DNA of 63,815 nucleotides, filler included, from Intoshia linei (GCA_001642005.1; 4 parts of 4 records of this genome joined end to end with filler, not necessarily neighbours in it); one strand, 5' to 3'. Shown: positions 32,218 to 35,200, counted from the whole stretch's first letter. Numbers and translations: made by a program. The notes: a model not told the origin generated them from the letters alone.

Positions 32218-35200
32218 TTAGTGAATGGCATTTTTAATTGTAAAAAATATGATTGTTAGGTCAACTAAATTAATAAAAGGTTGAGACATTTCTCTCATAT
32301 AATCTTTGAATACATGATAACTTAAATTTTGAAAAATTCCCGTTAACTTTTCAGAACTTTTCAGTAAACTAGGAACATAATATGAAAAATTAGATTTTAG
32401 TAAACTCAATTAATCTTAATTATAAAAATATTACTATTGGGGGAATCAGTAATTCCGTTTTGAAAAAAGCATTCATCTTTATTGGAAGGGTATCTCATTT
32501 TTCGTGTAAGCAATAGAAAATAAATCATTTTTTCAGTATTATTGCTAATTAAAAATAAAACATTTAAATAATATTGTTACCAATCTTTCAATAAATTTTT
32601 AATTAATTGCTGTTGATTTTTAAATATTTGTAGTGAATTCATAGTTGATAACACGTCAGTATCTAGTTCATCGACGGATTCAATTATGAAATTGGGCTAA
32701 AAATTAATTTAATCTTTAGATGCAATATTTCCACCCTTGACAACACCTTTTATTCCTTTTAAATATATTGTAAACCAAGTTGTATATATGTTATAGGCAG
32801 TTTGAAAATTTCATGCAATTTTACCAAACTTTTAGATAAAAAATCCCTCTATCAGACCCAAAATAAAAAACCCAATTTTACCAACCCTTAAGGAAATAAT
32901 CCCCTTTTACCAATATTTTTTTGAAAAATCCAATTTTATCAAAATTTTATTTAGAAATCTCTCTGATTCCAAAAGAAAAAACCAAATTTAGATGTTTCGT
33001 GTACAAAATTGACTTAACCCTTTCATATATTCAGTTTAACCAAATTTCAAAATCAAATTTTTTTTAAGGTTGCTCATCTAATTGATATTTTTATCAATAA
33101 ATAAATTATGGCAATCACAATTACTATATTTTTTTATATCTGAATTATAGTGGTATCTACAACGGTTACAACTACCACTTTTAAAAAAATTTGATGTTGA
33201 AGTTTCGTTAAACTGAATGTATAAAAGGGTTAAGTCAATTTTGTTAAAATTGGATTTTTCATAATAATATTGGTAAAAAGGGATTTTTTCCTTAAGGGTT
33301 GGTAAAATTTTGGTTTTTTCACATATTTCACTAAGTTGAATAAAATATGTTAAAAATTTATAACTCACCCCTATTCACCCACAATCATCTAAAATTTTAG
33401 TATTCACCCCCTCATAAAAATATTCCAACTTTGAGGGTGCACATGCACCCCCATGAGAAGCACTGCATTAGAACAAAACTTGTATCATTACATCAATTGA
33501 AATTGAATACAACGTTTATAATTTTTAAACTGCCTGTAACATATACAACGACTAATACTAAAATAATAATGTGAAATGCTGGTCAAGGTTTTAATTTAAA
33601 AAATTAATTTTTATTGACAATGGCGTAATCTAATAATGTGTCTGCGACAATTTTAGAATCTTTATATTGAAATAAGAGACAATCTAAATCTCTGAGTAAA
33701 TGATTAATTACATTGGAATCAAAATCTTTGTTTTCTAGAGTTATAGGTTTATGTAAAATTTTTACATTATTAATCAAATGTTTATCCTTTAGATTATTTT
33801 CATTTTGTAAAGTAACATTATCTTTGATTAAAGATTTCAATTTGCGTACACATTCCAGACTTTCATTTTTTTTTAACCGACAAACATCATTTTCATGTTT
33901 AATCATGAATCGGTTGTAACTATTTACAAATCGAGCAATAAGTAAATTGAGAAGCATGAATTTTCCAACAATAATAAATACAACAAAAAATATAATAACA
34001 AGTTTACTCCATTTTCCATTTTGAATTGTCATTTCATAGATTCGATACCAACCGTCCAAAGTTAGAATTTGAAAATTTGTTAGAAATGAACGGTTGTATC
34101 CTAAATAATTGCAAGGGTTTGTTGAAAACATGAGATGGCAGCCTAAAAGAGAAAACATGTGCAAAAATATCATAACTAACATTAAAATGGGCAAGCAGTC
34201 TATCAAAGAAGCACTAACTGCTTTCATCAGTAATTTTGTCCAGGGTAACATATTTAATAGTCGTAGGAATCGCAAATTTTTAAATGAAGCAATCATTTGT
34301 ATGTTTGAATATAAAACTGGGTTTTGAGAAAATTTACAGGATTTGATAAATTTTAAATTTAAATAAGTGATTAAGACGACAAAATCCATTGTTAGTAATG
34401 AAATTTCCATTACGTTGGAAAAATTGAAAAATTTTATCCATTTATATATTTTCTTTTTTTTTTGTCTAATTATTTTAATTTGGTTACAACTTTTTATAAC
34501 AGTAGCACATCTAACAATTGTCGATTTTCTACGATCAAATTTAAATTGCGTTTCTTTTTCTTTCTCTTCTGGTTTTTTCTTTTTCAATTCAATGTCTTTA
34601 TTCCCTTGATAAAATTCAAACTCAACAAAAGCGCCAATTTTGACGACTATATCAATAATGTATACAATTAAAAACAAAAAATCACAAATATCCAAAATTT
34701 CAATCAATTTATCAATAAACACACTTGCTCGAATTACAAATGATATTGTGTTTAAAATTATAAAATACATTATTGTCCATTTATATTTTTCATTTTCAGA
34801 TAATTTTAGAGTACGTAATGTAAAATTCATGGTAAAATGTATAATTAACGCAAAATGGTTATTAAATAATTAATAAATAGTTACCACTGGTTTATTGTAT
34901 ATTGTTATAGGTGTTCTACATCCACTACATTTATTATTAACGCTATGTAATATTTTAATTTACTTGATGTACCAAGAGGTTTTTTTTATTTGTTGAATCT
35001 AAATCAAATTTAATTGTATAATACAATTATATTCCCGTTTCATTTAAAGTTTAAAATTACAGTTATTCTCTTTTCCACATCAATTTCAATCATTGATCTT
35101 AATAAATTGTGGCATTCCAATGATACATAATTCGGTATGGTAAATATTCCAGCTTTAACTTTTTCTAATAGGTTACGAAGGTTTCCGTCATCGAATGGCA

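Follow-up and report, generated by a model that had tools for sequence, protein, structure and literature searches.

Introduction

Channels that share a polypeptide with a kinase are known from TRPM6 and TRPM7, in which a catalytic alpha-kinase occupies the C-terminal part of the chain. CatSper channels have a selectivity filter of the pattern TxDxW and a C-terminal helix that acts in a coiled coil, and the S4 segments of CatSper3 and CatSper4 are poor in charges. Each CatSper pore-subunit gene encodes a single channel domain of six helices (PMC13674862) with a conserved filter aspartate (PMC2572835); expression is sperm specific, and the Ca2+ current is raised by alkalinization (PMC5650668). 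Cai and Clapham found CatSper to be absent from the protostomes sampled at that time (PMC2572835), and Romero and Nishigaki listed Brachiopoda and some arthropods, but no Mollusca, as having CatSper (PMC6660944). Orthonectids, the sperm of which are uniflagellate, have been placed as an annelid-derived lineage (PMC12249979).

BRSK1 and BRSK2 (SAD kinases; PDB 4YNZ and 4YOM) have a kinase domain followed by a UBA_BRSK domain. In mouse SAD-A, the UBA domain binds the kinase domain and, together with the AIS, holds the kinase inactive, and phospholipid binding resides in the AIS-KA1 end (PMC4686854). Splicing of a nested gene onto its host has been described for mouse Inpp5f_v2, a Vma21 retrocopy that lies within an Inpp5f intron in the same orientation as the host and is spliced onto downstream host exons to produce a chimeric gene (PMC1796624, PMC3107425).

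A window of 63,815 nucleotides (the whole stretch of DNA that was analyzed, filler included) from the orthonectid Intoshia linei contains a locus that can be compared with each of these systems. The evidence is about evenly balanced for and against the organization proposed here, in which a likely CatSper3 gene inside a same-strand BRSK intron provides an alternative first exon and thereby yields a channel with a kinase regulatory tail. The locus matches Inpp5f_v2 in that an intronic gene on the host strand is spliced to host exons farther downstream. In Intoshia, an entire ion-channel subunit is joined in frame to one of the host's regulatory domains; a promoter of its own and a retroposed origin are putative for the channel gene, and the comparison is one of layout. 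The host has the domain order of BRSK1 and BRSK2; unlike in those kinases, its UBA and later exons are also used by the channel transcript. Like TRPM6 and TRPM7, the predicted chimera is a channel with a kinase-derived C-terminal part; it would have the regulatory half only and no catalytic domain, since the joint enters the kinase gene past the catalytic domain. Mouse CatSper3 (PDB 9UBW chain C and 7EEB chain C) shares with the Intoshia open reading frame (ORF) a single six-transmembrane (6TM) domain, the filter aspartate, and a predicted long helix after S6, at 16 to 18% identity. The Intoshia ORF differs in a basic S2-S3 insert and in the lack of coding introns, and its spliced form has the kinase UBA domain in place of the last helix. 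The layout thus has a precedent in Inpp5f_v2, and none was found for the fusion of CatSper to a kinase tail: among the best 15 results per listing, a literature search in which most subscription journals were outside the scope returned no report of CatSper nesting, fusion, or occurrence in annelids and no paper joining I. linei with CatSper.

Results and Discussion

Host kinase gene and layout of the locus

The window consists of contigs chained by linkers (8523-8622, 30024-30123, and 59915-60014; each with two blocks of 44 N on either side of a 12-base all-frame stop word), and gene order across linkers is therefore unreliable. The contig bearing the locus spans 30124-59914 (29,791 bases). 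The host was assigned to BRSK/SAD, as the best PDB match of exon 2 was BRSK2 (E = 7e-18), followed by the MARK family (E = 4e-11), which places its AMPK-family kinase domain nearest to BRSK. The exons downstream of the channel, which follow the kinase domain, matched the BRSK2 UBA domain (E = 7e-10) and Pfam UBA_BRSK. The kinase gene leaves the contig at the linker near 30123, and the rest of its tail (presumably AIS and KA1) lies outside the window because the contig ends after the exon at 30258. Coordinates are collected in Table 1.

Assembled contigs, not raw reads, from four of the six listed sequencing runs were compared over 31500-38000. One run (X1) behaves as DNA, and the other three (X2, X3, and X4, all from one study) were taken as RNA solely from their GT-AG joints. 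Such contigs show presence, and not level, start, or absence, and their depths were not used to rank expression. Seven kinase joints were seen in all three spliced runs, the joined exons translate without a stop, and the intron at exon 8 is 39 nt by the RNA contigs. Among these joints is 34885/32696, which was absent from X1 and which removes the entire intron containing the channel; the original prediction of a channel nested on the same strand between BRSK exons that splice together was thereby borne out. Its details at the donor also held: the GT lies at 34884, no AG occurs before the channel ATG, and an in-frame TAA is the fifth codon (VTIY, then stop). On the opposite strand in kinase intron 2 (38528-38708), a tRNA-Leu(TAG) gene was found, a second gene nested in this kinase.

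TABLE 1 Features of the nested channel and host kinase locus (positions in the window)
Feature	Position	Strand	Description
BRSK exons 1-3 (N-lobe)	38393-38993	-	Read from translation; end of exon 3 tied to exon 4 by a loose contig end
BRSK exons 4-9	34885-37435	-	Joints in 3/3 spliced runs; open translation
BRSK exons 4-9, individually	37435-37319, 37257-37224, 35634-35566, 35207-35061, 34998-34964, 34924-34885	-
Kinase intron containing the channel	32697-34884	-	2,188 nt; joint 32696/34885 in X2, X3, and X4
Donor-to-ATG stretch	34831-34884	-	54 nt; no AG; in RNA contigs of X3 (from 34884) and X2 (from 34869)
Channel ORF	33604-34830	-	408 uninterrupted codons, single-domain 6TM cation channel; ATG at 34830, stop ends at 33604
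Channel exon in RNA	33712-34884	-	One X3 contig, no skip, then kinase exon at 32696; channel aa 1-373
Chimeric-transcript intron	32697-33711	-	1,015 nt, GT-AG; donor AAT/GTAATT within ORF, phase 0; kinase acceptor reused
ORF tail skipped in chimera	33604-33711	-	Last 35 codons and stop; predicted helix resembling CatSper C-terminal helix
ATTAAA	33590-33595	-	8 nt after stop; candidate poly(A) signal of the putative unspliced form
BRSK exons 10-11 (UBA domain)	32435-32696 (32696-32581, 32544-32435)	-	Common to kinase and chimeric channel transcripts
Start of next kinase exon (..DVPKKRLD..)	30229-30258	-	Located from a loose contig end

RNA contigs joining the channel to the kinase UBA exons

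In contigs of X2 and X3, a GT inside the channel ORF (33711) serves as the donor for splicing to the kinase UBA exon at 32696, with a depth at the joint (33712/32696) of 7.55 in X2 and 21.1 in X3. The joint was absent from the contigs of X4, though X4 has the kinase joint, and from the DNA run X1, the contig of which is unbroken over 33495-34593. The evidence comprises contigs of one study, with the joint in two of the three spliced runs. A 1,200-nt contig of X3 begins at 34884, covers the channel frame as far as 33712, and continues into the UBA exon, bypassing eight upstream GT[AG]A sites and using the ninth. Of these nine donor-like sites, five lie in phase 0, so that a joint preserving the frame is not unlikely to arise by chance. 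The encoded product would consist of channel residues 1 to 373 followed by the kinase UBA domain and tail, in place of the last helix of the channel. Template switching was rejected as the source of the joint, because its ends are canonical (GT-AG) and no letters are shared at the junction.

The channel had been predicted to be an intronless, transcribed gene. "Intronless" describes the DNA frame correctly and fails in the RNA of X2 and X3, in which the frame is cut at 33711. Transcription was confirmed in that the frame is covered in RNA contigs. The cover is specific in X3, where the neighboring intron bins are empty (depth, 0), so that pre-mRNA background is not its source; in X2, channel depths (3.9 to 7.6) were no higher than the intron background (3.6 to 6.4), and in X4 the channel region appears only in short, shallow pieces. 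Contigs of X2 and X3 leave the end of the ORF (33711-33604) uncovered, and those of X4 cover it slightly. This lack of cover shows nothing in itself, since assemblers drop rare short branches.

The NCBI gene model OAF68830.1 (A3Q56_03420), which is labeled as a hypothetical protein or Ser/Thr kinase, contains the same junction, with channel residues 1 to 373 followed by the UBA exons. This model is a prediction that probably rests on the same DNA as the window and so is not independent evidence for the junction. It ends by running into the intron past 32435, where the RNA contigs instead splice to 30258. Contigs of X2 and X4 also continue from exon 11 into the next intron (32104-32464; depth, 5 to 6), which is the ending of the model; this sequence represents either pre-mRNA or a short alternative end. 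Relative to the window, one substitution in the UBA exon (32626) was present in all four runs and an in-frame 3-base deletion in the ORF (33762) was present in X1, X2, and X3, each being an allele or a consensus error.

It is very improbable that misassembly placed the channel in the kinase intron or that the fusion is only a product of gene prediction. The window is a chain of contigs, and gene predictors often fuse nested genes; a protein model from Electrophorus electricus, described below, merges two CatSper-like domains. Against this, no N occurs between 30124 and 52975, contigs of the DNA run overlap across 33495-35681, and the RNA contigs contain the joint itself. The DNA and RNA contigs largely refute this reading.

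Transcript start and coupling to the kinase

A transcription start near the kinase donor (34884) is compatible with the lack, in all three spliced runs, of a contig linking 34885 to 34884, although contigs cannot show a start. The channel contig of X3 starts exactly at the first intron base, 34884, without overlap of the exon; chance, a start site, a pruned exon-intron link, or the ends of an excised intron are possible causes. The original prediction had also offered a bicistronic message coupling a UBA-less kinase to the channel. Such a message would arise if transcripts from the kinase promoter skipped the donor at 34884 and used that at 33711, encoding a kinase that stops after VTIY and then the channel frame. 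The TAA that this requires is present, and the position at which the X3 contig starts could reflect a weak exon-intron link removed in assembly. In all three spliced runs, however, the kinase contig passes 34885 unbroken and no contig spans 34885-34884, so that no joint in the contigs supports the proposal, and we regard it as improbable. The coupling seen in RNA is its opposite, in that the channel acquires the UBA domain.

Family assignment of the channel

Pfam Ion_trans was found over residues 16 to 308 of the ORF (E = 1e-19), and a structure model (mean pLDDT, 83) agrees with a single six-helix domain. Two features named in the original prediction were recovered, the filter T257-L-D259-G-W261, which includes the aspartate of CatSper, and an S4 segment poor in charge, with 3 R/K compared to 6 to 8 in 50 of 50 CatSper1-type rows and 4 to 6 in 29 of 30 bacterial rows of the alignment. 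TLDGW is not diagnostic of CatSper, because some bacterial-type rows carry it as well (P0140 and P0146). A lysine-rich basic insert of ~55 residues in the S2-S3 loop (residues 76 to 130; 34441-34605) is retained in RNA and is missing in all five relatives aligned with the ORF. The insert includes RRKST, which resembles a basophilic kinase site. Among 3,949 candidates, the only close relative of the ORF was the I. linei gene model OAF68830.1.

The channel is probably a CatSper, and CatSper3 is the most likely subunit according to a protein language model and a structural aligner, whereas profile scores and Foldseek favor the bacterial Nav type. The top matches in the ESM Atlas were eukaryotic clusters, one unnamed (0.95), two of CatSper3 (0.94 each), and one of CatSper2 (0.93), with no bacterial row among the matches listed; the CatSper3 clusters share 199 to 200 of 256 features with the ORF. 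The structure model was built from an alignment of 81 rows (50 CatSper1-type and 30 bacterial-type), and an earlier model from 6 rows (pLDDT, 57) was set aside. When the model was compared to 48,161 chains with VIA-align, 7eeb_C and 9ubw_C ranked first and second; 9ubw_C is named CatSper3, and 7eeb_C, which has the same length and range, was taken as CatSper3. The best chain, 7eeb_C, aligned over 274 of 278 residues (Z = 17.9, rmsd 4.0), compared to 221 residues for NavAb (Z = 16.8, rmsd 2.3). The CatSper3 chains came first though the alignment underlying the model contained no named CatSper3.

The principal alternative concerns identity only and leaves the splicing unaffected: the channel would be either a single-domain bacterial-Nav type, in which case horizontal transfer would also explain why it lacks introns, or one isolated repeat from a four-domain channel. 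The ORF scored 103 bits against a bacterial-Nav profile and 87 bits against a CatSper1 profile (52 and 86 rows), opposite to a named CatSper2-like control (117 and 142 bits, respectively), and had 17 bacterial and 11 CatSper1 states at diagnostic columns. Foldseek placed NavMs first (E = 1.6e-6) and CatSper1 eleventh (E = 5.5e-6), with nearly equal E values, and NaChBac was the best single-domain phmmer match (52 bits, versus 33 to 36 for CatSper chains). Together with the occurrence of TLDGW in bacterial-type rows, these results lean toward the bacterial type. Against it stand the Atlas and VIA-align results and a long C terminus with a predicted terminal helix: 114 residues follow S6 in the ORF, compared to 101 to 201 (median, 131) in CatSper1-type proteins and 42 to 104 (median, 63) in the 30 bacterial rows. 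Residues T28, Y57, K64, and A299 carry the CatSper state at columns that are strongly fixed in both groups, the third-position GC content of the ORF matches that of the kinase (0.22 and 0.24, respectively), and CatSper1 is kept in annelids. We judge this alternative unlikely.

A tree of 65 rows contained 21 of 52 CatSper1-type rows, 6 other CatSper-like pieces, 15 of 86 bacterial rows, 16 repeats of 4 four-domain channels, and 6 repeats of 3 two-domain channels, and no CatSper3 or CatSper4 rows. In this tree, the ORF lies on a long branch (2.42) outside all groups, and AU tests rejected no placement (CatSper, P = 0.65; bacterial Nav, P = 0.67; four-domain repeats, P = 0.64). Profile and tree tests are biased against CatSper because their reference sets lack CatSper3 and CatSper4 sequences. 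The CatSper affinity first proposed for the ORF was supported by the Atlas and VIA-align comparisons, and the phylogeny neither places the ORF in CatSper nor excludes it from CatSper. Piece-wise PDB searches brought no CatSper3 chain into view, and a profile search with one alignment (A1) gave four proteins only. No Intoshia-named CatSper appeared among the 120 of 325 matches listed, which is not evidence of absence. One retrieved protein, P0022 of E. electricus (XP_035382788.1), is an 893-residue CatSper2-like model with two channel domains, the first of which groups with bilaterian CatSper1; either annotation has merged two neighboring genes, or the subunit is a tandem one.

The loss of CatSper from protostomes is less general than the original prediction implied, as CatSper1-type proteins were retrieved from three annelids (Owenia, Ridgeia, and Lamellibrachia) and a barnacle (Amphibalanus). 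Because annelids keep CatSper1, retention of CatSper in Intoshia is in itself unsurprising. The coding frame of the ORF lacks introns in DNA, as in a retrogene, and the genome of I. linei has ~5 introns per gene with a median length of 57 bp (PMC6543705), so that an origin of the channel gene by retroposition is plausible. Searches retrieved no parent or orthologous locus and no related locus in metagenome contigs.

Skipped C-terminal tail of the channel

The part of the ORF that is skipped in the chimera was compared to CatSper C-terminal helices by using a profile cut from 40 of 54 reference proteins, with a cutting pattern written after the ORF had been seen. The best window in the whole ORF was residues 375 to 401, in the same register as in the alignment of relatives. 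Its score was reached by 51 of 5,000 shuffles of residues 309 to 408 and by 14 of 5,000 shuffles of the last 35 residues, as well as by 9 of 222 other proteins, four of which are CatSper-like in the tree or close copies. The score is low (0.1 bit, versus 11 to 72 bits for the 49 of 54 references carrying the motif). An HMM version of the test was not significant (113 of 2,000 shuffles scored as high, and the register was wrong), and searches with the tail alone gave no PDB match and only nonsignificant ESM Atlas leads (≤0.86). Given the frequency of stops in introns, 35 open codons would be expected by chance with a probability of ~0.06.

The CatSper-like helix, the open codons, and the ATTAAA suggest that an unspliced subunit of 408 residues is made and kept, and a normal unspliced form of the channel probably exists. 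Retention of the helix motif argues that selection has favored the unspliced form. On these observations, the chimera would represent a second functional form or else splicing leakage. Under leakage, the 408-residue subunit would be the working product of a nested gene, and the chimera, without a role, would arise when some transcripts read past a weak poly(A) site and the strong acceptor of the host pairs with a cryptic donor. The open codons, the profile match in the tail, and the ATTAAA fit such an origin, and because out-of-frame leaks would be degraded, in-frame leaks may be those that stay visible. Against leakage, no form other than the chimera is kept in the contigs of X2 and X3: the contig of X3 does not branch at 33712, and the depth of bin 33453-33669 is 0 in each of the two runs; the low score of the motif and the nonsignificant HMM, PDB, and Atlas results for the tail also weigh against it. 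On this evidence, leakage appears somewhat unlikely.

Proposed organization of the locus and its significance

In the proposed organization, transcription would start close to the kinase donor, and the channel would serve as an alternative first exon, joined to the kinase UBA exons without a shift in frame. The chimeric message may be translated, as no stop interrupts the frame in the shared exons. Transcripts escaping the chimeric splice would end at the ORF's own stop and encode the normal subunit of 408 residues, C-terminal helix included. Three proteins would then arise from the locus, namely, the kinase, the normal subunit, and a subunit with its last helix exchanged for the UBA domain and tail. 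By analogy with SAD-A, the chimeric tail could, speculatively, tether or damp a kinase at the channel or serve in membrane targeting. A stronger form of this proposal is doubtful, namely, that the chimera is the main and selected form, so that the helix of Intoshia CatSper3 has been replaced by the BRSK UBA domain and tail, wiring a sperm channel to the regulatory half of a kinase in a gene that switches its N-terminal module.

If the chimera is translated and selected, it would be a natural domain swap on a channel with poorly resolved cytoplasmic ends, and a single locus would place either an enzyme or a channel before the same regulatory tail. Specialists would be surprised to see a likely CatSper3 joined in frame to the regulatory tail of a kinase; should the joint prove to be leakage, what remains would be a nested CatSper-like gene, which is of modest interest. 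A CatSper gene in a genome that ranks among the most reduced of animals leads to the prediction that orthonectid sperm have CatSper-type calcium signaling. A fused database entry that resembles a misannotation can correspond to a real transcript, and here the public annotation conceals the CatSper-like gene as well as the intact kinase.

Other genes in the window

Additional coding sequences were read elsewhere in the window. An Abl-like tyrosine kinase (21822-27146, plus strand) has SH3, SH2, and kinase domains, with a Pfam match to SH2 and the family name read from translation. Exons at 27323-28272 and 29471-29719 (both minus strand) were also read from translation; we take them to resemble PDE6D (prenyl binding, ciliary trafficking) and the GGMP-repeat end of cytosolic HSP70, respectively. 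An ORF of 285 codons (12492-13349, plus strand) has several hydrophobic stretches, no Pfam match, and a stop-free frame extending back to 11943. A broken integrase (rve), the remnant of a retrotransposon, lies at 53331-54331 (minus strand).
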